This document shows positions 27,148 to 39,377 of a DNA stretch of 64,000 nucleotides, one piece after another. How positions within the stretch are numbered: the first letter of the stretch is position 1; every line of letters begins with the position of its first letter. The position numbers and the translations under genes were made by a program. Location: assembly GCA_964411865.1 (NCBI GenBank), contig CAYPNO010000001.1:13197-77196 (forward strand), in the 5' to 3' direction. The stretch is from an uncultured Desulfuromonas sp. GTDB taxonomy: Bacteria > Desulfobacterota > Desulfuromonadia > Desulfuromonadales > Desulfuromonadaceae. Under the pieces are notes generated by a model that saw only the letters and a list, made by a program, of their open reading frames with translations, was not told the origin of the DNA and ran no database searches.

Positions 27148-28566
27148 CTATAACAATAAAGCTACTGCCTCTTTCGCTGCTGACATAAACTCTTGCGGCA
27201 ATACACCAATAAGAATTATTGCAAGGATAAAGAACACCCCTAAAGCTTTCGAGCCAATCGGCATCAGAATAGGATCTTTATCGTCATCTGCCCCACAATA
27301 CGCTGCACGTGCCATCTTTAAGTAGTAAAACATTGCTATTGCAGCATTAATAACCCCAATAATTACTAAAGCATAAAAACCTTTATTTATAGCTCCAGTA
27401 AAGACCACAAACTTACCTACAAAACCTATAGTCGGTGGTATTCCAGCCATACCAAAAGCCGACACCAACAAGGTCATTGCAAGCAATGGCGATCGACGAG
27501 ATAGTCCTTTGAGATCATCGAAGCTTACATTTTGTCCCTCCGGTGCAATATTATAAATAACGTAGAAGCATCCTAGATTCATGAGTAAATAACCGATGAT
27601 GTAGAATACTGCAGCAGCCATACCTAAGAGATCCGCTGTAAGAATACCAAGCATCACATAACCAGCATGAGCGATACTGGAATATGCAAGCAAACGCTTA
27701 AGATCGTGCTGAACCAAAGCAGTCAGGTTGCCAAAGGTCATTGACAGCACTGCAAAGGAAGCAAGCACCCATGTATACTGAGTTATATCCGCACCAGCGA
27801 CAGCAACAAGTCGCAGTAACAGCAGAACAGCTCCTACTTTTGGAAGGGTTGCTATAATACTTGTAGTTTCATTTGCTGCACCCTGATACACCTCAGGCGT
27901 CCAGAAATGCATGGGAAACATCGCCAGCTTATACAGAAAACATATCAACACAAGTATCATGGCAAAAACTGCCAGAGGTTGTGTTGCAACCAATGAAGGT
28001 ACTACTACTGCAAGTTCATTTAGATAAGTCGTATGGGCAAGCCCAAAGATATAACCCATACCGTACAAAGTCAGTCCAGTTGCGATTGCGCCAAACATTA
28101 TATACTTGATACAAGCTTCCGCAGACAAGCGTCCTTGACCCTGACGGAAGGGAATTACCACATATAAAGCGAATGAGGAGATTTCAAGACTTAGAAGTAT
28201 GGCAAGCAACTCAACTGAACTGCTAAGAAAAACCAAACCCAAAGCACTTATCCCCAGAAACATATTGTATTCAGCATGTAACTTGGACTCGATTCCAACC
28301 AACCCACGCCCTAGGGCATAAACTAGAAACAAACCGCTTAGGATAATAATCTTGAATAACTGCGAGAGCGCATCGACCTGATACGCATCGAAAAACAGTA
28401 ATCCATTAGCGCCATAGCTAGCAACTGCCGCCACCAGCACAACCGCTGACATAACGAGAGTAACCCCTTGGATCACTCCAGTGCGTAACTTGCCCAAGGT
28501 CATGAAGAACAAAACCAGGACCATTAACATCAGAGCCATTTCTGGCATAAAAACTGTGTTTAGCAT
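27148..28566 (-). CDS. nuoN: NADH-quinone oxidoreductase-like subunit N
   Basis: 472 aa polytopic protein with HFWTPEVYQGAANETTSIIATLPKVG (NuoN-type motif). Last gene of the operon. Confidence 0.88.
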   Translation of the reverse strand: MLNTVFMPEMALMLMVLVLFFMTLGKLRTGVIQGVTLVMSAVVLVAAVASYGANGLLFFDAYQVDALSQLFKIIILSGLFLVYALGRGLVGIESKLHAEYNMFLGISALGLVFLSSSVELLAILLSLEISSFALYVVIPFRQGQGRLSAEACIKYIMFGAIATGLTLYGMGYIFGLAHTTYLNELAVVVPSLVATQPLAVFAMILVLICFLYKLAMFPMHFWTPEVYQGAANETTSIIATLPKVGAVLLLLRLVAVAGADITQYTWVLASFAVLSMTFGNLTALVQHDLKRLLAYSSIAHAGYVMLGILTADLLGMAAAVFYIIGYLLMNLGCFYVIYNIAPEGQNVSFDDLKGLSRRSPLLAMTLLVSAFGMAGIPPTIGFVGKFVVFTGAINKGFYALVIIGVINAAIAMFYYLKMARAAYCGADDDKDPILMPIGSKALGVFFILAIILIGVLPQEFMSAAKEAVALLL

Positions 28567-28585
28567 AATTGATCCGCTTCTTTGA

Positions 28586-30172
28586 TTAGAAACTTACGAT
28601 ACTTTTAATCCACGCACCTGCATCATGCAGCAACGCGTGGTGCCCACCCGTATGCGCCACCTCAGGAATAACACTGCCCGCTTCAACCTGACCGATCAGA
28701 TGAGCAACACTACTATCCATTACATCGAGCAGCGGCGTGGGGTGCAAGCCAATCCAGAATACAAACACGGTCAGAAAAGCCAACTGAACTATCTCACGTG
28801 CATTACAGTCTGCGATAACATGACCGTCGCTGTGATGCGCGTGACCATCAGAGTCATCCCATACCATTTTCTGCAGCAGCCGCAACATATATGCAGCTGC
28901 TAATATTGCTCCTGGAATAGCTAATGCACCTACCAGAGGGTACTTTTCAAATGCGCCGAACAACACCAAAAACTCCCCTACAAAGCTGTTTGTTCCAGGG
29001 AAAGCTAAAGATGAAAGCGAGAAAATACCGAGGAACGTAACATATATCGGCATAATCATGCCAAGCTTGCTATTGTCACTTATTTCACGACTATGAGTAC
29101 GCTCGTAGATCAAGCCTATCAAAATAAACAATGCTCCAGTGGTTACCCCGTGGTTAATCATCTGCAACATGGCACCTTTAATACCACCGGTGTTGAGAAG
29201 AAATATTCCCAAGGTTACGAATCCCATATGGCCAACTGAAGAGTACGCTATCAACTTCTTAATGTCAGACTGCCCAAGCGCCAAGTAGCCACCAACAATA
29301 ATGCTAACTATCGACATACCAAGTAGGATTGGCACACAATAGTATGTAGCTGCCGGAGTTATAGGGAGGCAGAAACGTAAAAACCCATACCCACCCATTT
29401 TTAACAGGATGCTAGCAAGAATGACCGAGCCGGCGGTAGGTGCCTGCACGTGTGCTGCCGGCAGCCAAGTATGAAACGGAAACATGGGCATTTTGATAGC
29501 AAATCCCAATGCACATGCGATAAACACCCACATCTGGAATGAAAAGCTATAAGTGTGGGTCATCAATTCAGGAATGAAGAATGTTCCCGTATTGATGTAC
29601 AGCGCAATAATAGAGACCAGCAAGAAGATACTGCCTGCAAAAGTATACAAGAAAAATTTGATCGAAGCGTAGTCTTTACGATCACCACCCCAGATAGCGA
29701 TGATGAGGTACATCGGGACCAGCATCCCTTCCCAGAATATATAAAAAAGTACAGTGTTCAGGCTCATAAACACGCCTATCATAGCTGCTTCCATCAAGAG
29801 CATAACAACCATGAATTCTTTGACGCGTGTCTTTATATATGTCCAGGAGCACAATACGCACAGTGGCATAACAAAGGTAGTAAGCAGCACAAGTAGAACA
29901 CTGATACCATCTACACCTAAGACATAATCGAGGTTCAGATCAGGAAACCAGCGACGCAACTCAACAAACTGGTATTTGGCTGTAGTCCGGTCAAAACGAG
30001 TCCATAAAGGGATGGAAATCAGAGCTGTAAGCATCGTTACAGCGAGACTCCAGTATTTGAGCAAGGTCTCGCCACGTAAAAACATAGCGATTACAGCCCC
30101 GACTACCGGTACAATCAATAACATTGAAAGTACCGGGTAATTCAACGTGTTCAGTATAAGATACTTTTCCAT
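28586..30172 (-). CDS. nuoM: NADH-quinone oxidoreductase-like subunit M
   Basis: 528 aa with HTWLPAAHVQAPTAGSVILASILLKMGGYG (NuoM-type motif). Confidence 0.9.
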   Translation of the reverse strand: MEKYLILNTLNYPVLSMLLIVPVVGAVIAMFLRGETLLKYWSLAVTMLTALISIPLWTRFDRTTAKYQFVELRRWFPDLNLDYVLGVDGISVLLVLLTTFVMPLCVLCSWTYIKTRVKEFMVVMLLMEAAMIGVFMSLNTVLFYIFWEGMLVPMYLIIAIWGGDRKDYASIKFFLYTFAGSIFLLVSIIALYINTGTFFIPELMTHTYSFSFQMWVFIACALGFAIKMPMFPFHTWLPAAHVQAPTAGSVILASILLKMGGYGFLRFCLPITPAATYYCVPILLGMSIVSIIVGGYLALGQSDIKKLIAYSSVGHMGFVTLGIFLLNTGGIKGAMLQMINHGVTTGALFILIGLIYERTHSREISDNSKLGMIMPIYVTFLGIFSLSSLAFPGTNSFVGEFLVLFGAFEKYPLVGALAIPGAILAAAYMLRLLQKMVWDDSDGHAHHSDGHVIADCNAREIVQLAFLTVFVFWIGLHPTPLLDVMDSSVAHLIGQVEAGSVIPEVAHTGGHHALLHDAGAWIKSIVSF

Positions 30173-30219
30173 GACTTCCTACTGTCTCGAATGAGTTAAT
30201 GCGTATGGCTTGAAAACTA

Positions 30220-31986
30220 TCACACCAATACAACAACAATCAGAACCACGAACACCACCCCAACCGCTGCCCCAATGTATTGTTGCAGTTTACCGGTCTG
30301 TAATTGTCGGGTCTGCTCACCAGCTTTAACCACTCCTTTAGCGCTACCATCAAGAGCCCAGTCAATTCCCTCCCAATCAAACCAGGAAAGTGCTCGCGCG
30401 GTGGCCATAGTAAAACGCAGACCTACATTCTGATACACGTTACTTACCCACTCATTGGCTGCATTAATCGGTTTCTTAGCTATCCACATGAAACCAAGCG
30501 CACCTTTACGGTAAAACCAGTCCAGATCCAGATTAGATACGTCGTGGGGCTTAAGATATTTAACCATGATATAAAAGCCTAAACTAGTAAAACCAAGCAA
30601 ATGGAAGGTTTCTGTAAGGTGGTAGGCATTGTAAGGATGGTAGTCCACCGCATATGGCAGCATATTATACAAGTAATCAGGATAGATTCCGAGAAAGATG
30701 CACATGAATGCAGCCATGAACATCCCGACTTGCATATTCCAGTGCGCTTCTTTAGGTTTAATCCCTGGATCATTAGGGCCGAACCAGATGAAGTACGGCA
30801 ATTTTATCCCAACGGACAAGAAAGTACCTACAGCTGCCAAGGAAAGCATTAGCATAATAACGGTCTGATGATCCGCACCTGCTGCAGAGATGATCATAGA
30901 TTTACTTACGAAACCACTGGTAAGAGGGAACCCGGAGATCGCAATGCCCCCAATAACCGTAAATACCAGCGAAAGTGGCATATATTTATACAAACCGCCA
31001 AGTTCACTCAACTTTGAGCGTCCTGTCATCTCAAGAACACTGCCCACACCCATGAAAAGTAACGCTTTATAGAGAATATGCGCATACGCGTGCGCACAAG
31101 CCCCGTTGAGCGCCATATGAGTACCAATGCCAATACCACACACCATATACCCAACCTGACTGACAATATGATAAGCAAGTATTCTCCGCGCATCATTTTC
31201 AATAACAGCGTACCCAACCCCATACAGAGTCATGATGGCACCCATTATTGCCAACACTTCATATCCTGCAAAACCGCGTGCCAATACATAAACAGCTGTC
31301 TTTGTAGTGAACGCACACATAAATACCGCGCCGGTTACCGTAGCTTCTGGGTAGGCATCCGGTAGCCACGCATGTATTGGGGGAACAGCGGCATTTAACA
31401 TGAACCCTATCATGATAAGGTAATCGCCCAAAGTAGCGGTATCTGGGGCAATCAACTCAAAACTTAGATCATGCACATTCTGATAACGTAGGAATATGCC
31501 AGCCATCAGTATCAGACCGCCAACTACGTGCACCAGGAGATAACGATAGCCAGCCTCGATAGAACGTCTGCGCTTGCGATACCAAATCAGGAATACAGAG
31601 GCGAACGCCATCAGTTCCCAAAATACGAAAACAGTTAAGTAGTCGCCAGCTAAGGTCGTACCAAGCGATCCAGCAACATACAGCCAAGCTGCAGCATGCT
31701 GACCACTTTCCTTGACATGTAAGCCGAAAATACTACCTATCAAAGCCATCAAGGTGAATACATGAAGAAACACCATGGTTAACTGATCAACGCGCCCAAA
31801 CTGGAGCTTAAAGCCCATCCATTCGACAGTACCGAATGATGCTGGCAGGTATCTGATCTGTATAAAAGCCAGCAACGGCACCACTATCAACCAAATTTTT
31901 TGTGCGTTGAACTTTCTGAATAAGGGCAGCAGCAGCGCGCCGACAATAAATAGCGCCGCCGGGTGCATAAAGATACTACTTGTCAT
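30220..31986 (-). CDS. nuoL: NuoL-like antiporter subunit with C-terminal lateral helix and terminal TM
   Basis: Proton_antipo_M core (HAWLPDAYPEATVTGAVF). The C-terminus IDWALDGSAKGVVKAGEQTRQLQTGKLQQYIGAAVGVVFVVL matches the NuoL/Nqo12 HL-helix signature (IDG..NG...LR.LQTG....Y). Trimmed to the ATG at 31986, overlapping the upstream stop. Confidence 0.8.
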   Translation of the reverse strand: MTSSIFMHPAALFIVGALLLPLFRKFNAQKIWLIVVPLLAFIQIRYLPASFGTVEWMGFKLQFGRVDQLTMVFLHVFTLMALIGSIFGLHVKESGQHAAAWLYVAGSLGTTLAGDYLTVFVFWELMAFASVFLIWYRKRRRSIEAGYRYLLVHVVGGLILMAGIFLRYQNVHDLSFELIAPDTATLGDYLIMIGFMLNAAVPPIHAWLPDAYPEATVTGAVFMCAFTTKTAVYVLARGFAGYEVLAIMGAIMTLYGVGYAVIENDARRILAYHIVSQVGYMVCGIGIGTHMALNGACAHAYAHILYKALLFMGVGSVLEMTGRSKLSELGGLYKYMPLSLVFTVIGGIAISGFPLTSGFVSKSMIISAAGADHQTVIMLMLSLAAVGTFLSVGIKLPYFIWFGPNDPGIKPKEAHWNMQVGMFMAAFMCIFLGIYPDYLYNMLPYAVDYHPYNAYHLTETFHLLGFTSLGFYIMVKYLKPHDVSNLDLDWFYRKGALGFMWIAKKPINAANEWVSNVYQNVGLRFTMATARALSWFDWEGIDWALDGSAKGVVKAGEQTRQLQTGKLQQYIGAAVGVVFVVLIVVVLV

Positions 31987-32224
31987 AATGATCCGTGTCC
32001 CTCTCCAGCCATACGTGTGACAGCCCTTTGCAGAAAACAATCATTAGCAGACAGCCGAGCAGGCCAAATATCGCCCAGAAGCCTATGATATTATCCCCCC
32101 AGAAATGGGCTTCGCTCCGATCTGCAAAAAAATCAAATACTAGCGCAAACCCCAGATATGCGATAAAAATCCACTTCATCACAGCAGGGCGCTCGCGCAA
32201 ATACGTTATCATCTGTGCGATCAT
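31976..32224 (-). CDS. Small (82 aa) two-TM membrane protein of unknown function inside the nuo operon
   Basis: Hydrophobic segments WIFIAYLGFALVFDFF and IIGFWAIFGLLGCLLMIVF. Overlaps both neighbours (4 nt upstream, 11 nt downstream), which suggests translational coupling. Confidence 0.6.
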   Translation of the reverse strand: MIAQMITYLRERPAVMKWIFIAYLGFALVFDFFADRSEAHFWGDNIIGFWAIFGLLGCLLMIVFCKGLSHVWLERDTDHYDK

Positions 32225-33714
32225 GATTTCACCATAAGATTAATAAGATCGAGGAACAAGTTGGGATAGATGCCTATCAGCACTGAAATAGTTGCTGTTA
32301 TAACTAGAGGCACCACCATAAATAATATCATGGGCTGCTTTTCCAAGCTTCCTGTAACCCCAACATCTTCTGGCACAGGTTTTCCAAAGAATCCTTGTAG
32401 GAAAATTGGTACAAAATAGCCCGCATTTAGCAAACTACTTACAAGCAACACACACAAAAGTATCCAATTGTGAATATCAATAGTACCTAACGCCAGATAC
32501 CATTTTGTGACGAATCCTCCTACCGGCGGGATTCCAATCATACTCAAAGAGGCAACGCCGAAAGCAAGCATTGTCCAAGGCATCCTATAGCCTAGCCCGC
32601 CCAGTTCTTTAATATCCTTTTTCCCAGTGGCCACAAAGATACACCCAGCCGCGAAAAATAATGTGATTTTAGCGAATGCATGGTTAGCAATATGAATCAA
32701 ACCACCAGTAATAGAGTTTGGAGTCAACATTGCAACACCAAGCACTATGTAAGACAACTGACTCACAGTTGAATATGCAAGTCGCGCCTTAAGATTGGTT
32801 TTTGTAAGAGCAATAACCGACGCCGTTAGAATGGTAAATGAGACAAAGTACGCTGTGAACAGGCCTAACCCAGTCTCCGTCAGAACGTTTACTCCAAAGA
32901 CGGATAACATAACGCGACAAATAGAAAACACCCCAACCTTAACAACAACCACCGCATGTAACAATGCGCTGACGGGTGTAGGCGCTACCATTGCATCTGG
33001 CAACCAGTTGTGCAGCGGCATGATACCAGCCTTAGCAAAACCAAACAGGCATAGCAGGTAAGCTGCCCCTATCGCCAACCTGCTCGCATCGGCGGGGAAA
33101 ATACCCTGCGCAATATCTGCAGTTTGGAAGTCAAGGGTTCCAGCTAGCACATACACAATAACCATGGCAGGGAGGAGGAATGCCTTGGAGGTAAACATTA
33201 GGTACACAATGTACTTTTTAGCTCCGGCATAACCCTCTTCGTCTTGATGGTGCATGACCAATGGATATGTGAAGATTGACACAATCTCATAGAAAAGATA
33301 CAGGGTGAACAGGTTGCCCGCGAACGCCGCACCCATAGCTGCCCCAACTGAGACAGCATAACAAACATAGAATCGCGTCTGGGCATGCTCATTTAACCCG
33401 CGCATGTAACCGACACAGTACAGACTGGCCAGAATCCATAGAAAGGAAGCTACCAGCGCAAATATTACCCCAAGCCCATCAAGGTTGAGCATGACCGAAA
33501 CGCCAGGGTACAGCTCAAACAAGGTGTACTTGAGCTGAGTTCCATTAAGTATGGTGGGGACAAAGCTTACCACCGATGCAAAGGTTAATATCGCACCAAG
33601 GGTTGACCAACTGTCACGCACATTCGGCCTCTTCCCTGAAAACATGACCAGTAGTCCTGTTATCATAGGGATAAGCATTGTTATAATTATCTTGCTTGTG
33701 ATTATCGTGTTCAT
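32221..33714 (-). CDS. Additional antiporter-like subunit (MrpD/NuoL-type core, no lateral helix)
   Basis: 497 aa with HNWLPDAMVAPTPVSALLHAVVVVKVGVF (NuoL/MrpA/MrpD-type motif) and no C-terminal extension. Lies between nuoK and the NuoL-like gene. Confidence 0.8.
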   Translation of the reverse strand: MNTIITSKIIITMLIPMITGLLVMFSGKRPNVRDSWSTLGAILTFASVVSFVPTILNGTQLKYTLFELYPGVSVMLNLDGLGVIFALVASFLWILASLYCVGYMRGLNEHAQTRFYVCYAVSVGAAMGAAFAGNLFTLYLFYEIVSIFTYPLVMHHQDEEGYAGAKKYIVYLMFTSKAFLLPAMVIVYVLAGTLDFQTADIAQGIFPADASRLAIGAAYLLCLFGFAKAGIMPLHNWLPDAMVAPTPVSALLHAVVVVKVGVFSICRVMLSVFGVNVLTETGLGLFTAYFVSFTILTASVIALTKTNLKARLAYSTVSQLSYIVLGVAMLTPNSITGGLIHIANHAFAKITLFFAAGCIFVATGKKDIKELGGLGYRMPWTMLAFGVASLSMIGIPPVGGFVTKWYLALGTIDIHNWILLCVLLVSSLLNAGYFVPIFLQGFFGKPVPEDVGVTGSLEKQPMILFMVVPLVITATISVLIGIYPNLFLDLINLMVKS

Positions 33715-33797
33715 TGCAAGCGCTTTCTCAGGTGGTGTGTTTCAACAGATGTTTTGAAACAGCCGTTAGAGTTACCTAAATCCTCAATACAAACAAA

Positions 33798-34115
33798 TTA
33801 GTGCTTCATATCCTGTATTATGGCCGGATCTTCATTACGGAACCGCCTGTAGACAACAATTATAATACTTACTGCAATTGCTGCCTCTGCAGCCGCCAAT
33901 CCCATAATAAATAAGGCATATATCTGACCAACTGCAGGGTTTGGAGCTGTAAAGGTATTAAAAGCCATGAAATTCAGAGCAGCACCATTAAGAAGAAATT
34001 CACTGGAGATAAGCATGCCTATCAATGAACGGTGCTGAATCATTCCATAAAGGCCTATTACCAACAGAAGTGCCGCAATAATCAAGTAAGTATTTAGATT
34101 ATCACTAATAATCAT
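33798..34115 (-). CDS. nuoK: NADH-quinone oxidoreductase-like subunit K
   Basis: 105 aa, three TM segments with LAAAEAAIAVSII. Position after nuoJ. Confidence 0.85.
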   Translation of the reverse strand: MIISDNLNTYLIIAALLLVIGLYGMIQHRSLIGMLISSEFLLNGAALNFMAFNTFTAPNPAVGQIYALFIMGLAAAEAAIAVSIIIVVYRRFRNEDPAIIQDMKH

Positions 34116-34636
34116 TTTACCGCTCCATCTCGTCCGCCACGTGCGAGAATAATTGAACCTATGATGGCTGTCAGTAGGATAAGCGAGATCAACTCAAAAG
34201 CTAAGCAATATTGAAGCAGCAAATTTTCACCCACAAACTGAATGGACATGTCGCCGATTCGCTCTGCCGCAGGAGAAAATCCGGTCTGTGACAGCACCGC
34301 AAACAATGCCAAAAACACAGCAGAGCACGACCCTATTGCCAGTAGTTGATTTCGCCCTTTAAGGTTTTTTTCTGCCAACTGGTGCGGCGTGTTGCCCATC
34401 ATAATACCCATAGCTATCATGATGCATACCGCCCCGACATATATGAGAACCTGCATAACGGCCAAAAAAGTACTGCCAAGATGAAAATACAAACCTGCTA
34501 TTCCCAGCAGAGATACTGCAAGACCGATAACAGCATGCATCAACAACCTTGAACGCACTGCCATAAACGCGCCCATAAATGTCAGGATCATGAAGGCATA
34601 AAACAGGGCCTCGGCTATGTACCGATATACAATCAT
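34112..34636 (-). CDS. nuoJ: NADH-quinone oxidoreductase-like subunit J
   Basis: 174 aa, hydrophobic, LIYVGAVCIMIAMGIMM. Overlaps nuoI and nuoK by 4 nt each. Confidence 0.82.
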   Translation of the reverse strand: MIVYRYIAEALFYAFMILTFMGAFMAVRSRLLMHAVIGLAVSLLGIAGLYFHLGSTFLAVMQVLIYVGAVCIMIAMGIMMGNTPHQLAEKNLKGRNQLLAIGSCSAVFLALFAVLSQTGFSPAAERIGDMSIQFVGENLLLQYCLAFELISLILLTAIIGSIILARGGRDGAVK

Positions 34637-35073
34637 TCCCGCTCCTCCACTCTCTTGAGCAAATCGTAATGAAAATCTTCACGTGCAAATCCTGCAACTT
34701 CATAATCGTCACAGTAATCTAACGCCTTAGTAGGGCAAACTTCGACACAAGCTCCGCAGTGACTGCACTTCGTATAGTCAAGCGTATACAGGGTCAACAC
34801 CTTCCCCTTAACCCCCTCACGCTTTTCTCCTTCAAGGTAAATACAGTCAGACGGGCAGTCACGCATGCACATGCCGCAGGTGATACATCTATGAGTCCCT
34901 GTTTCAGGATCTTTGACTAAATCAATGTGCCCTCTATAGTTAGAGGTAACATCAACCTTTTGTCTAGGATACTGAACAGTCACTACTGGTGAAAACAACG
35001 CCTTTAGCGTAACCTTAAGGCCAACTATAAGGCTCCAGGCTCCCGTAAACAGATCTGAAAAATACGCTTTCAT
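34633..35073 (-). CDS. nuoI: NADH-quinone oxidoreductase-like subunit I (2x[4Fe-4S])
   Basis: CITCGMCMRDCP and CSHCGACVEVCP ferredoxin motifs. 146 aa. Confidence 0.92.
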   Translation of the reverse strand: MKAYFSDLFTGAWSLIVGLKVTLKALFSPVVTVQYPRQKVDVTSNYRGHIDLVKDPETGTHRCITCGMCMRDCPSDCIYLEGEKREGVKGKVLTLYTLDYTKCSHCGACVEVCPTKALDYCDDYEVAGFAREDFHYDLLKRVEERE

Positions 35074-36056
35074 AGCTTTACAACCACGACAGTAATTAGA
35101 AGATTAACCAGTGAGAACGGCAGCAAATACTTCCAGCACAGGTTCATCAATTGGTCGAAACGGGTTCGAGGATAGGTCCAGCGAATCCAGACGAGAAAGA
35201 ACATCAGCAAGTAAACTTTTAGTAAAAACCAGATAATGCCAGTATATTCAAAGTAGGGTAGCGGAATTCCAGAAGTACCTCCAAGGAAGAATACTGCTGC
35301 AATACTGCAAACGATAAACATGTTTGTATATTCCGCTATCATGAACAGGCTGAATCCCATACCGCTATATTCAGTATGGAACCCAGCAGTAAGCTCACTC
35401 TCCGCTTCAGCAAGATCGAATGGAGCTCGGTTTGTTTCGGCTACCATACACACTAGATAAATAAGAAAAGCAACCGGCTGCAACACGACAAACCATACAT
35501 TTTGTGCCTCCATGATGCCACGGAGACTGAATGTATTGGTCATAAACACGATTGCAAGCAATGAGAGCAGCATTGGAATTTCGTAGGCAATATTTTGCGC
35601 CACTGCCCGAAAAGCTCCAAACATAGAATATTTATTGTTTGACGCCCAACCTGCGACTAGAATTGCGAGCACGTTAATTGACGCTATTGCAAGGATAAAC
35701 AGCAACCCTACATCCAGGTCGAACGCCTGAATGCGGTCACTAAAGGGAATCACCAGCAAAGGGAGAAATACTGGCGCGAATGACATTATAGGTGCCAGCA
35801 TAAACAGTGGCTTATCAGCCTTGGCTGGGATCACCAGTTGTTTCGACATCAACTTAATGCCGTCAATTACCAACTGCAATACACCGTGAAATCCAACTTC
35901 CATCGGCCCAGTTCGCCGTTGAAAATGGCCAGCTAGTTTTCGTTCCATGTAGCCCATTACCAGCGCATTGCCGAACACCAGCACTAAAGAGCCGATAACC
36001 GCTATGACGATCCGAATTATTTCCGGGGCATAAGAATTAAGAGTCTGCATATTCAC
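35070..36056 (-). CDS. nuoH: NADH-quinone oxidoreductase-like subunit H
   Basis: 328 aa with ERKLAGHFQRRTGPMEVGFHGVLQLVIDGIKL and RAPFDLAEAESEL motifs. Confidence 0.93.
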   Translation of the reverse strand: MNMQTLNSYAPEIIRIVIAVIGSLVLVFGNALVMGYMERKLAGHFQRRTGPMEVGFHGVLQLVIDGIKLMSKQLVIPAKADKPLFMLAPIMSFAPVFLPLLVIPFSDRIQAFDLDVGLLFILAIASINVLAILVAGWASNNKYSMFGAFRAVAQNIAYEIPMLLSLLAIVFMTNTFSLRGIMEAQNVWFVVLQPVAFLIYLVCMVAETNRAPFDLAEAESELTAGFHTEYSGMGFSLFMIAEYTNMFIVCSIAAVFFLGGTSGIPLPYFEYTGIIWFLLKVYLLMFFLVWIRWTYPRTRFDQLMNLCWKYLLPFSLVNLLITVVVVKL

Positions 36057-37177
36057 TACCTGTCAATCTCAGGGATAACGAGGTCAAGTGCACCCATACT
36101 TGTAACCACATCAGATATCATCATCCCTTTGCACACCTCGGGCACAACACTGAGATTACTGTAAGAGGGGGTACGCACCTTGATACGGTAGGGTACGTCA
36201 CTACCATCGGACACCAGATAATAGGACAACTCGCCGCGCGGCGCTTCAACTGAGCAGTTATAGTCACCTTGCGGGAGCTTAAGCTTCTTCGGCACCTTAG
36301 CTGCCATCACTTCCCCTTCCGGCAATTTATCTAGAGCCTGTTCAATAATACGTAGACTCTGCTCCATCTCGCGGTAGCGCACATTAAATGCAGACCAAGC
36401 GTCACCCGCCTGTGCAAGCGGAACCTCAAAATCGAATTCAGAATACACAGAATAGGGCTCAGCTTTACGCAGATCATAATCAACACCAGCGGAACGCAAC
36501 AGCGGGCCTGTCACTCCATAGCGCGCACAAAGTTCAGGCGTATAGCATCCTACCGTCTTCATACGTTTCTGCACAATAACGTTGCCATTGACCAGATCTT
36601 CGTACATAGGGAAACGCCCGCGCAAACGCTCTACAAACGCCCGAGTACGCTCAATGAACTGTGTATCGATATCCTTGCAGACCCCACCAACCCTACAGTA
36701 ACAATAGGTAAGACGCGAACCACATATATCCTCAAGTGCATCGAGAATGTGTTCGCGATCGTCAAACGTATACATTATGGGGGTAAACGCGCCTAAGTCG
36801 AGCAGGTACGCGCCATACCAGAGCAGATGGCTCTGGATACGATTCAACTCACTGGTGATAACACGGATATACTCCGCTCGCTTCGGCACCTCAATGCCAG
36901 CAGCGCGCTCAAGCAACATAGCGTAGCCTTGGTTGTAAATAAGGGCACCAAGGTAATCCATGCGGGCAGTATTCGGCATAAATGAGCTTGCCGGCCTACT
37001 CTCGCCAATCTTCTCGTGACAACGATGCACGTAGCCCAATACAGGTTGGGGGTCAAGAACGTACTCCCCCTCCATCTTCAACAGCACGCGCAATACTCCG
37101 TGAGTACTGGGATGCTGAGGCCCCATATTCAGGACGAAGTGATGTTGTCTTTCGTCTTCTAACACATCTACATTCAT
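36056..37177 (-). CDS. nuoD: NADH-quinone oxidoreductase-like subunit D
   Basis: 373 aa with LNMGPQHPSTHGVLRV and C-terminal DLVIPEIDR. Directly abuts nuoH, so no nuoE/F/G lie between. Confidence 0.92.
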   Translation of the reverse strand: MNVDVLEDERQHHFVLNMGPQHPSTHGVLRVLLKMEGEYVLDPQPVLGYVHRCHEKIGESRPASSFMPNTARMDYLGALIYNQGYAMLLERAAGIEVPKRAEYIRVITSELNRIQSHLLWYGAYLLDLGAFTPIMYTFDDREHILDALEDICGSRLTYCYCRVGGVCKDIDTQFIERTRAFVERLRGRFPMYEDLVNGNVIVQKRMKTVGCYTPELCARYGVTGPLLRSAGVDYDLRKAEPYSVYSEFDFEVPLAQAGDAWSAFNVRYREMEQSLRIIEQALDKLPEGEVMAAKVPKKLKLPQGDYNCSVEAPRGELSYYLVSDGSDVPYRIKVRTPSYSNLSVVPEVCKGMMISDVVTSMGALDLVIPEIDR

Positions 37178-37198
37178 AGCAATTAGCTCAGCTCCGGG

Positions 37199-37762
37199 CT
37201 AGTTTGAAGCTTTTGGTTTAGCTGTCTTTTTATCTGCAACAGCGGGTTCCTTTTTTGCAGGGGCAGGAACCTTTTTTTCCTCAGGCTCTGCACTTGCTTG
37301 CATATGTCGCAACGCGGAAATATCCTTCAGGCCCTTTTCGGCCTTGAGCAGTGGCTTCAGGTCCACATCCTCCTCCGCTAAAATAAGGGGAACAAGATTT
37401 GGATGACCGGAGAACACCACACCATAGAAGTCTCGTACTTCACGCTCATGCCAATTAGCACCCTGATACACGTCTGATATTGTGGGCACTGTACCATCAG
37501 CCTTAACAGCGGTGCGCGCCATCACCCTACAGCGAGATGACCCCGCGTGGGCAAACTGATAGATCACTTCAATCGCGGGCAGAGCGTGTACAGCTGTTAC
37601 AAACACGAGATAAAACCCATCCGCCAGCATCAGTTCAGCCAGAGAATGAACGTTATCAGCTGTCATGTTAAGGTTGAAGTCATATCCTGTTTTGGCATAA
37701 TCAGTCTCTTCAACTTCGGCGCCAATAGCGAGCCATTTTTTTTGCATTGCTTTAACATTCAT
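37199..37762 (-). CDS. nuoC: NADH-quinone oxidoreductase-like subunit C with Lys/Pro/Ala-rich tail
   Basis: 187 aa with ANWHEREVRDFYGVVFSGHP. C-terminal low-complexity tail EPEEKKVPAPAKKEPAVADKKTAKPK. Confidence 0.88.
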   Translation of the reverse strand: MNVKAMQKKWLAIGAEVEETDYAKTGYDFNLNMTADNVHSLAELMLADGFYLVFVTAVHALPAIEVIYQFAHAGSSRCRVMARTAVKADGTVPTISDVYQGANWHEREVRDFYGVVFSGHPNLVPLILAEEDVDLKPLLKAEKGLKDISALRHMQASAEPEEKKVPAPAKKEPAVADKKTAKPKASN

Positions 37763-37768
37763 AGCGCA

Positions 37769-38365
37769 TCAGGCTCCCTTCGGCATTCTGTTCTGCGGGA
37801 ACGGATTACGTCGACCTGCAATCTTCTCCTGAAGTTGCATTATCCCCTCAATAAGAGCTTCGGGCCTAGGAGGACAACCAGGGACATAAACATCAACTGG
37901 AATAAGCTTATCCACTCCGAGCACAACATCGTAATTCGCCTCGACGTCAAACGGACCACCGGAAACAGCGCAGTTACCAAGTGCGATGACATAACGGGGC
38001 GCGGGCATTTGCTCATACAGGGTTAACAGAACCGGTGCCAGCTTTCTATTTACAGTGCCGGCAACAATCATAAGGTCAGACTGACGTGGCGAAGGACGGA
38101 ACACCTCTGCCCCAAAACGAGATATGTCAAAACGAGCCATCCCGCAGACCATCATCTCAATCGCGCAGCAGGCGATACCAAACGTCATTGGCCACAGCGA
38201 GTTAGCTCGACACGCATTGAGAATTTTATCAGCCAATTCCAGCTGAATCAGGCCTGCCTGATGGCCACCCGCCATAACATCACTAGACAAACCATGTTCG
38301 CTCCGCTCACGACACTCCTTGGAGTAGGAGTGAACTCTTAGTAAACTTTTCTTCTGTTCGGCCAC
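37769..38365 (-). CDS. nuoB: NADH-quinone oxidoreductase-like subunit B (N2 cluster)
   Basis: [20 protein letters not shown] and [14 protein letters not shown] start with AAGGGAG 7 nt upstream. Overlaps the nuoA end. Confidence 0.9.
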
Positions 38366-38730
38366 GTAAACACTCCCTTGACCCAGGCATACACGATCGC
38401 CAGAGACAAAATACCAACAAATATGAACAGCTCAGTAATGCCCCGCGCTGCAGACACCTTGTCAAAAGCTGTCGCCACGGGGAACAGATAAAGAACGTCA
38501 ACGTCAAATGCTAGAAATATCAGCGCGTACATATAATATGAAATATCAAAACGTACATTCCAAGCGGTATCATACGTTTCCATCCCACATTCATATGTAT
38601 CAAGAGTCCTGCTGAACCCTCCCCTCGGCGCGATCAGACGGGCGATCACTAGGACCCCGAGGGCACATGCTACCCCAACCGTCAGAAACACGAGAACATA
38701 CATGTAATCGACTAGATGATGTTCAACCAT
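38338..38730 (-). CDS. nuoA: NADH-quinone oxidoreductase-like subunit A
   Basis: YECGME...[13 protein letters not shown] motif. Trimmed to the ATG at 38730 with GAGGGAGG upstream. Confidence 0.88.
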
Positions 38731-39377
38731 ACCTACTTTTGCCTCCCTCAATGGGAATACACCCTGAAGCATACAGGGTGCGAATCAAATAAATCTGCTC
38801 GGTCACCGAACCGCGTAGTCCGTAGCATCTCAGTGTCAGCACAGAAGACCCGACGCATAGTGAGAACTTCACTGACCTGCTTCTTGTATCGAAATGGCAA
38901 AACATTGTCAAGATCATAATAAAAACAAAAGCACGCGGCCCATCATCTTCTTCTCCAACACACTGTAATACATAGCCTTTATTTGCCTTGAGGCATGTAT
39001 TGACACTAACTCCATTGGATACTGTATACAATTTTCATACGGACATTTACGCTTGCCGCTCAATTATTTTGAGCGAAACGCTTTGCCAAACATAACTGCG
39101 TTTTAACCACTTTGATGCTCTTCCTAAGCCTGCATCCACTTAACGCAATTTTAAAACCATTTGACTTCCAACCTCATCACATGATACGCACGTTAGCTTC
39201 CAGTAGGACTGTGAGTTGCTGCGCAGTGGCCTCTGCGCAAACTAAATTTACGTGCTCATACATATTCTAAAAGCTATTCAAAAAAGCTGCACGCGTAAAA
39301 CCTCACCACACCCAAAACATTGCTGACTGCCTGCGGTGGCAGGTCTCTCAGCGCGGAGAAACAAAGGACAACACAAA

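Follow-up and report, generated by a model that had tools for sequence, protein, structure and literature searches.

We analyzed a 64,000-nucleotide stretch of DNA from an uncultured Desulfuromonas sp. (hereafter, the window), which spans positions 13197-77196 of contig C1 in a 3.01-Mb metagenome-assembled genome (MAG) of 625 contigs with an estimated completeness of 97.5%. On the minus strand of the window, 13 close-set genes (38772..27148) follow one another in the order nuoA-B-C-D-H-I-J-K-X1-small-X2-nuoM-nuoN, where X1 and X2 are antiporter-like genes for proteins of 497 and 588 amino acids (aa), respectively, and the gene denoted small encodes an 82-aa protein. This order had been proposed in an earlier note made from the sequence alone; all 13 open reading frames (ORFs) are present at the proposed coordinates, and in Pfam searches the products of the first eight genes (nuoA to nuoK) each match their own family. 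The predicted membrane arm is that of green complex I, a design in which two MrpD-like subunits replace NuoL between nuoK and nuoM.

The four antiporter-like subunits anticipated by the earlier note are all recovered by PF00361 (Proton_antipo_M), which covers nearly end to end the proteins of 497 aa (X1), 588 or, from the longest ORF, 606 aa (X2), 528 aa (NuoM) and 472 aa (NuoN). Among the NCBIfam models, X1 (32221..33714) exceeds the 663-bit cut-off of NF006236, "monovalent cation/H+ antiporter subunit D", with 752 bits, and X2 (30220..31986) exceeds the 564-bit cut-off of NF009310, "Na+/H+ antiporter subunit D", with 745 bits. The longest ORF of X2 starts at TTG 32040 and the 588-aa protein at ATG 31986, which is the start kept in relatives. 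X1 consists of a core of 14 transmembrane (TM) helices with the motif WLPDAMVAPTPVSALLHA and, as previously noted, has no C-terminal extension. In X2, the 14-helix core is followed by TM15, a lateral helix and TM16, an arrangement of the MrpA-N/NuoL type; its C-terminus carries the predicted signature IDWALDG...LQTGKLQQY and a terminal TM helix, corresponding to the NuoL/MrpA motif FDxxxIDxxxDGxA...RxxQTGxxxxY. Against the NuoL model TIGR01974, with its cut-off of 407.5 bits, X1 and X2 score 184.9 and 168.6 bits, respectively, and both fall outside the NuoL clade in the maximum-likelihood tree of antiporter-like subunits, so that canonical NuoL is not encoded in the operon. In contrast, NuoM (28586..30172) scores 578 bits with TIGR01972 (cut-off 263.8) and belongs to the NuoM clade, and NuoN (27148..28566), at 323.6 bits slightly under the TIGR01770 cut-off of 332.6, is placed in the NuoN clade with 100/100 support.

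In the same tree, X1 forms a 100/100 clade, sister to NuoL, with its rhizobial homologue and with the second D-type subunit (D2) of a group-3 Mrp antiporter cluster encoded elsewhere in the same MAG (contig C52). X2 likewise groups (100/100) with the third D-type subunit (D3) of that cluster and a rhizobial homologue, on a long internal branch of 1.8 changes per column. At the sequence level, X1 is 57% identical to the Ensifer protein and 47% to the D2 subunit of its own genome; the respective values for X2 are 52-53% for the rhizobial proteins and 38% for D3, and in the PDB, the best matches of both proteins are MrpA, Mbh and NuoL chains that are no more than distantly related. By phylogeny and identity, then, X1 is the orthologue of group-3 Mrp D2 and of MrpD1 from rhizobial green complex I, and X2 the orthologue of D3 and MrpD2. 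The earlier note had described X1 as L/MrpD-like rather than a second NuoM, and both the tree and the NCBIfam assignment agree with this.

Green complex I (Degli Esposti & Martinez-Romero 2016), as summarized in PMC9040806 and PMC7415380, has two MrpD-like subunits instead of the one NuoL. A tblastn search of plasmids with X2 returned 114 records, mainly from Sinorhizobium, Rhizobium and Ensifer, with 52-53% identity. On plasmid pT173d of Ensifer canadensis (L081), the annotated order is nuoJ, nuoK, an "antiporter subunit D family" protein (487 aa), a hypothetical protein (84 aa), a "Na+/H+ antiporter subunit D" (586 aa), nuoM, N, A, B, C, D, E, F and G. Thus, the nuoJ-K-X1-small-X2-nuoM-nuoN block of the window is the same as in Ensifer, with identities of 57% for X1, 53% for X2 and 32% for the small protein, and the rhizobial enzymes further share with the window an asparagine on TM7 of X2 and a lateral-helix connector of 81-82 residues. 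The two loci differ in that the Ensifer operon places this block ahead of nuoA-B-C-D and keeps nuoE-F-G, whereas the window has the ancestral order A-B-C-D-H-I-J-K in a genome lacking the NADH-oxidizing N-module. The arrangement is not new: the order from nuoK to nuoN is that of rhizobial green complex I, and the complete 13-gene order recurs in related loci, as described below.

Other complex I variants are similar only in part. The 2M complex I of Nitrospira and other organisms (Chadwick et al. 2018), in the descriptions given by PMC9040806 and PMC7419157, has a second NuoM and keeps NuoL with a 26-aa insertion. The window resembles the enzyme so described in having four antiporter-like subunits and a lateral helix longer than that of canonical NuoL, but has a single NuoM, with NuoL replaced by two Mrp-type subunits and a small protein. 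Complex_I_3 of "Ca. Manganitrophaceae" shows the identical replacement of NuoL by two MrpD-like subunits, with a 26-aa insertion in MrpD2, but has two NuoM subunits and hence five pumps (PMC9040806), against one NuoM in the window. Finally, the NuoEFG-less Nuo of Desulfovibrio and other Deltaproteobacteria, the cyanobacterial and chloroplast NDH-1, and the 11-subunit enzymes of the Fpo type resemble the window in lacking the N-module, with ferredoxin or another non-NADH donor proposed or shown (PMC4287179), and an Fd-NDH-1L structure (PDB 6l7o) is among the structure matches; unlike the window, however, these enzymes keep canonical NuoL, NdhF or FpoL and three pumps.

A counterpart of the X1-small-X2 block is found in the group-3 Mrp cluster on contig C52 (1045-8500), for which the order mrpE-F-G-B-C-D1-D2-small-D3 was verified. 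Its products are MnhE, MrpF, MnhG, a MbhD/MbhE/MnhB fusion, MrpC, and D-type subunits of 496, 491 and 584 aa. Between D2 and D3 lies an unannotated ORF of 84 aa, below the 90-aa cut-off of the ORF listing for this contig, which encodes a two-helix protein ending in ...GDYYDEC and has no Pfam match. Ten more Mrp clusters, located in different genomes within the phylum, show the D1-D2-small-D3 layout, which, together with the 100/100 support of the X1/D2 and X2/D3 clades, indicates that the X1-small-X2 cassette is shared with these antiporters. The two settings differ in the partners of the cassette, namely, NuoM, NuoN and a redox module in the window, as opposed to MrpD1 and MrpC in the Mrp clusters. 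None of the MrpE, F, G, B/A-C and C subunits, all present in the C52 cluster, is encoded in the window operon. In another Mrp-type cluster (locus L097, G386:C13, from ~12076 onward), an extra X2-like gene directly follows D3, bringing the antiporter-like subunits to four.

The small protein (31976..32224) begins with an amphipathic helix, followed by two TM helices, and its acidic C-terminus ends in ...DxDYYDK; an AlphaFold2 (AF2) model with a pLDDT of 74.6 has helices at residues 2-11, 13-33 and 49-73. Searches of Pfam, NCBIfam and the PDB gave no match, the hits of the PDB profile search being at chance level only (E >= 0.05). At its start, the gene shares 4 nt with the end of X1, and at its end, 11 nt with the beginning of X2; nearly all relatives have a 4-nt X1/small and an 8- or 11-nt small/X2 overlap. 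Among 26 homologues, 13 positions are invariant. The small protein shares 85% identity with a hypothetical protein from Desulfuromonas thiophila and 32% (E 2e-9) with its positional counterpart in Ensifer. To the 84-aa ORF of contig C52 the similarity is weak (hhalign E 3.9e-4), and position, size and C-terminal motif agree. The earlier note had regarded this protein as a novel partner of the extra subunit. The protein is real and translationally coupled, but it is not new, being present in rhizobial green complex I and in group-3 Mrp clusters. Because it accompanies the D2/D3 pair in both the Mrp and Nuo contexts, it would belong with X1 and X2 rather than being an adaptor specific to complex I. 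Open frames of ~580 aa found in the phylum search looked like fusions of X1 with the small protein, but inspection of locus L083 identified them as stop-free alternative frames in high-GC genomes, the small gene being distinct from X1 (488 aa) and overlapping it by 4 nt.

A scan of the genome collection detected relatives of the small protein in 118 species genomes, and 80 related loci were kept for comparison, with gene order judged as far as the contigs reach. The order nuoABCDHIJK-X1-small-X2-nuoMN was found in all 80. The carriers include Desulfuromonas, Desulfuromusa kysingii DSM 7343, Pelovirga terrestris, Geoalkalibacter, Desulforapulum autotrophicum, Desulfobacula and Ca. Tharpella, and within the operon, conservation is highest for X1 and X2 (70-98% identity). 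In a representative library, the small-protein profile matched 481 clusters (at 50% identity), and among genomes sampled from the phylum, it was detected in 156 of 401 genomes and 99 of 255 genera, counting both Nuo and Mrp contexts. Overall, the operon is very common in Desulfobacterota, including cultured strains (also Desulfuromonas thiophila); the design has already been published, is annotated in cultured relatives and is widespread, and the window operon is one more ordinary member of the family.

The Q-module is complete in Pfam and NCBIfam searches, with NuoB (37769..38365; PF01058, and NF005012 at 227 bits against a cut-off of 116), NuoC (37199..37762; PF00329), NuoD (36056..37177; PF00346, 303.8 bits) and NuoI, a 2x[4Fe-4S] ferredoxin-type subunit (34633..35073; Fer4 families). 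The proximal membrane subunits NuoH (35070..36056; PF00146, 393 bits), NuoA (38338..38772; PF00507, 92.8 bits), NuoJ (34112..34636; PF00499) and NuoK (33798..34115; PF00420) were also all found, in addition to NuoM and NuoN. The longest nuoA ORF encodes 144 aa, and relatives align only from residue 9-17 on; the start is probably Met15 at 38730, as previously assumed. NuoB has cysteines at all positions aligned to C63, C64, C129 and C158 of E. coli, the ligands of cluster N2, and NuoD retains the residues aligned to His224 and Tyr273 of E. coli NuoCD, which belong to the quinone site; both the quinone site and the N2 ligands are therefore intact. A [NiFe] hydrogenase, group 4 or Ehr-type large subunit was considered for NuoD and rejected: the match to PF00374 reaches 15.6 bits, under the cut-off of 25.8, and NuoD reads HPSTHG and, near the C-terminus, DLVIPEIDR, where hydrogenases have cysteine pairs.

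As the earlier note had observed, nuoD abuts nuoH, the stop codon of the former and the GTG start of the latter having base 36056 in common, and nuoE, nuoF and nuoG are not inserted between them. The operon is flanked by ilvC (convergent) and an aminotransferase gene (divergent), so no input module adjoins it either. Across the whole genome, PF01512 (NuoF/RnfC) and PF01257 (NuoE) had no match although control genomes were positive; NuoG was not searched separately. The proposed lack of an NADH module thus holds for the NuoE and NuoF families genome-wide. A second nuo operon, which the earlier note had suggested looking for, is present on contig C31 (10495-15544) with the order nuoA-B-C-D-H-I-J-K, and probably continues on C301 and C255 with canonical NuoL, NuoM and NuoN. 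This operon is of the ordinary NuoEFG-less kind with canonical NuoL, and because nuoD again leads straight to nuoH, both complex-I enzymes of the organism lack NuoEFG. Contig C31 also carries nqrA-B-C, and the sole Rnf/Nqr-type membrane pair of the genome, on C12, is NqrD/E; given this and the lack of RnfC, Na+-NQR is present and Rnf absent. The 2-oxoacid:ferredoxin oxidoreductase (POR) domain occurs at six loci of the genome. Ferredoxin has been proposed as the donor for the NuoEFG-less Nuo of Deltaproteobacteria (PMC4287179); a literature search combining nuoEFG, ferredoxin and Desulfuromonas gave no result.

Two further loci of the MAG encode antiporter-like proteins outside the nuo and mrp operons. 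On contig C179 (446-4116), a 488-aa antiporter-like, a 546-aa NuoCD/HycE-like and a 171-aa NuoB-like protein are clustered. The large subunit reads RVSGDSSIAH at the place where [NiFe] hydrogenases carry RxCGxCxxxH, and the cluster may represent an Ehr-type (hydrogenase-related, non-NiFe) complex, another possible oxidizer of ferredoxin. Contig C130 (898-2913) contains a solitary gene for a 671-aa NuoL/HyfB-like protein of the antiporter type, on a long tree branch and without nuo or mrp neighbours on the 6.7-kb contig.

The proton-path residues were compared among the four antiporter-like subunits. X1 keeps all of them, with E143 (TM5 Glu), K228 (TM7 Lys), a NuoL-type histidine (H253) and a NuoM-type lysine (K259) on TM8, K349 (TM11 Lys) and K404 (TM12 Lys); the respective residues are E148, K227, K258 and E400 in NuoM, and E128, K213, K243 and K385 in NuoN. 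In X2, the TM5 glutamate (E124) and the lysines of TM8 (K229), TM11 (K307) and TM12 (K362) are kept, whereas Asn198 replaces the TM7 lysine of all canonical subunits. This asparagine stands unchanged in 37 X2 sequences, and rhizobial X2 and Mrp D3 have it too. Since X2 invariably lacks the TM7 lysine, the four proton or sodium channels that had been proposed for this enzyme are plausible but not secure, the four antiporter-like proteins themselves being well established.

The lateral helix of X2 was also compared with that of NuoL, as the earlier note had proposed. The distance from the DW motif of the lateral helix to TM16 is 81-82 residues in X2 proteins from nuo contexts (the window, Pelovirga, Desulforapulum and Ensifer), and 52-56 residues in NuoL of E. 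coli and in the canonical NuoL of the same genome; within the family, the DW and QTG motifs are 74 residues apart in 63 of the 72 members. A scaling of this length with the number of bridged subunits was supported by the first comparison, in which two verified Mrp D3 proteins gave 57-61 residues. It was abandoned when nine other Mrp D3 proteins, which likewise have two neighbours only, gave 49-102; the longest connector, 102 residues, belongs to D3 of the L097 cluster. The connector is thus longer in X2 than in NuoL, but the spread in Mrp D3 makes its length uninformative with respect to the reach of the helix.

Taken together, these observations probably describe a complete enzyme of the complex I type with a green-complex-I membrane arm, without the N-module, supplied with electrons by ferredoxin and equipped with an enlarged pump arm. 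The components of this reading are not equally firm. We have little doubt about the architecture and the origin of the cassette, whereas for the ferredoxin donor and the higher ion-to-electron ratio the chances appear about even. In this enzyme, NuoL is replaced by the three-gene cassette common to group-3 Mrp antiporter clusters, whereas the Q-module and the proximal membrane part are ordinary, and the subunits would be arranged physically in the order H/A/J/K - N - M - X1 - X2. Electrons would enter at NuoI/NuoB from a non-NADH carrier of low potential, ferredoxin reduced by the 2-oxoacid:ferredoxin oxidoreductases of the genome being the most probable one, and menaquinone would presumably be reduced at the intact NuoD/NuoH site. 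Compared with a complex of three pumps, the enlarged arm might then move a larger number of ions for each electron pair and, running in reverse, the same enzyme could reduce ferredoxin at less membrane potential per electron.

Several points weigh against this scheme. To our knowledge, no complex I with the Mrp cassette has been purified or its structure solved. The TM7 lysine that is missing from X2 is essential in NuoL, NuoM and NuoN, so there might be no fourth canonical pump. The single-chain AF2 model of X2 (pLDDT 72.6), of which the best fold matches are MrpA, NdhF and NuoL (TM-score ~0.7), is unreliable in the lateral-helix region, with pLDDT below 50 at residues 480-571, and, given the 49-102 range in Mrp D3, the 25-30 residues by which the X2 connector exceeds that of NuoL cannot show that the helix spans X1 and NuoM and reaches NuoN. 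On the input side, no ferredoxin-docking subunit was identifiable, and the genome-wide absences depend on the completeness estimate of a fragmented MAG.

One alternative would be that X1 and X2 are the two halves of a split nuoL or that X1 is a duplicated nuoM, with NADH as the donor by way of nuoEFG located elsewhere. As a whole, this seems hardly tenable, and its split-nuoL and duplicated-nuoM parts are refuted at the level of sequence comparison. Each of the two proteins spans the whole of PF00361 and can be aligned with solved subunits along the entire 14-helix core, both are well under the NuoL cut-off and outside the NuoL clade, and X1 is outside the NuoM clade, to which only one protein of the operon belongs; a distant nuoEFG is opposed by the absence of the NuoE and NuoF families from the genome. 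We consider it unlikely that X2 serves mainly as a structural brace, with the lateral helix and TM16 as a clamp and a modified or inactive channel, leaving NuoN, NuoM and X1 as the three canonical pumps. The invariant Asn198, shared with rhizobial X2 and Mrp D3, and the long internal branch of the X2 clade would fit such a role. However, the TM5 glutamate and the TM8, TM11 and TM12 lysines are retained, X2 is among the most conserved subunits of the operon (70-96% identity), and a pure brace would have no need of a conserved 14-helix core.

The two remaining alternatives concern the ion that is moved and the direction of catalysis. The cassette is common to Mrp cation/proton antiporters, many carriers are, according to the record titles, Desulfuromonadales from marine or alkaline habitats, and the genome also uses Na+-NQR, all of which would be compatible with an enzyme that uses redox energy to pump Na+, or exchanges Na+ for H+ as quinone is reduced, instead of being just a stronger proton pump. 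Nevertheless, this appears improbable, given that the solved Mrp structures place the Na+ path on the MrpA-C/B/C/E/F/G side rather than in the MrpD-type subunits (PMC7419157), and the subunits of that side are those missing from the window operon. Alternatively, the enzyme could normally operate in reverse, the membrane potential driving the reduction of ferredoxin by menaquinol and the extra subunit lowering the potential needed per electron, as has been proposed for other four- and five-pump complexes, namely, 2M complex I and Complex_I_3 of Manganitrophus (PMC9040806). The architecture is reversible in principle, but we would not expect this to be the usual direction here: acetate oxidizers of the Desulfuromonas type make reduced ferredoxin via 2-oxoacid oxidoreductases, of which there are six loci in this genome, an enzyme that re-oxidizes ferredoxin is needed without Rnf, and nothing in the window points to a need for reverse electron flow.

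Compared with the ferredoxin-fed enzyme with an enlarged pump arm that we favor, a more far-reaching proposal can be offered only tentatively. A portable distal module, D2-small-D3, would be used by group-3 Mrp antiporters and by complex I of the green type alike, and the small protein could be an obligatory, hitherto undescribed component of it. The replacement of the TM7 lysine of X2 by asparagine would be permanent, so that X2 would couple to its neighbour otherwise than NuoL does, and in NuoEFG-less hosts, sulfur- and metal-reducing Desulfuromonadales might have in this enzyme their main ferredoxin:menaquinone oxidoreductase, with an ion-to-electron ratio above that of any characterized complex I. 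Complex I variants with extra pumps bear on the energy conserved per electron in anaerobes, and the cultured carriers (Desulfuromusa kysingii DSM 7343, Pelovirga terrestris, Desulfuromonas thiophila and Desulforapulum autotrophicum) make the donor specificity, the ion stoichiometry and the role of the small protein approachable.

Within the 83-nt gap between nuoK and X1, the earlier note had pointed out an AT-rich hairpin at 33738..33761. On the minus strand, it reads GTTTCAA-N8-TTGAAAC (33761..33738), a 7-bp stem with an 8-nt loop, bordered by the conserved sequences GTAACGGC and ACACACCACYTGAGAAAG. There is no U-tract, and therefore, the hairpin is not an intrinsic terminator. In 30 spacers from Desulfuromonas and Desulfuromusa, 78% of the cells pair, 4 of the 7 pairs show compensatory changes, none of 500 shuffles matched the observed covariation score, and controls with a slid partner were far lower. 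Over its full length, the spacer is not more stably folded than its shuffled versions (z = +0.75), and RNAalifold gave no consensus structure for the spacer alignment, on which the covariation was obtained by counting the pairs of the window hairpin. In many distant loci (Pelovirga, Ca. Tharpella-type), the spacer is just 6-25 nt long, and the hairpin is absent from the more distant members of the family. Thus, the hairpin is real and covarying in Desulfuromonas and Desulfuromusa, and it is a lineage-specific intra-operon RNA element; it might be a site of processing or stability, or a translation signal for X1.

Scans for promoter and terminator consensus sequences yielded results at chance level. 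A GC-rich hairpin followed by a T-rich stretch is located in the operon leader at 38797-38811 (minus strand), ~25 nt upstream of the longest nuoA ORF, and was found by a scan that was at chance level overall. At the C-terminus of NuoC, ~36 codons (37199-37310) encode a low-complexity tail rich in Lys, Pro, Glu and Ala (...EPEEKKVPAPAKKEPAVADKKTAKPKASN). Nearly all related operons encode NuoC tails that are alike in composition, although not in sequence, and the tail might act in docking or as a spacer close to the face of the enzyme where electrons enter.

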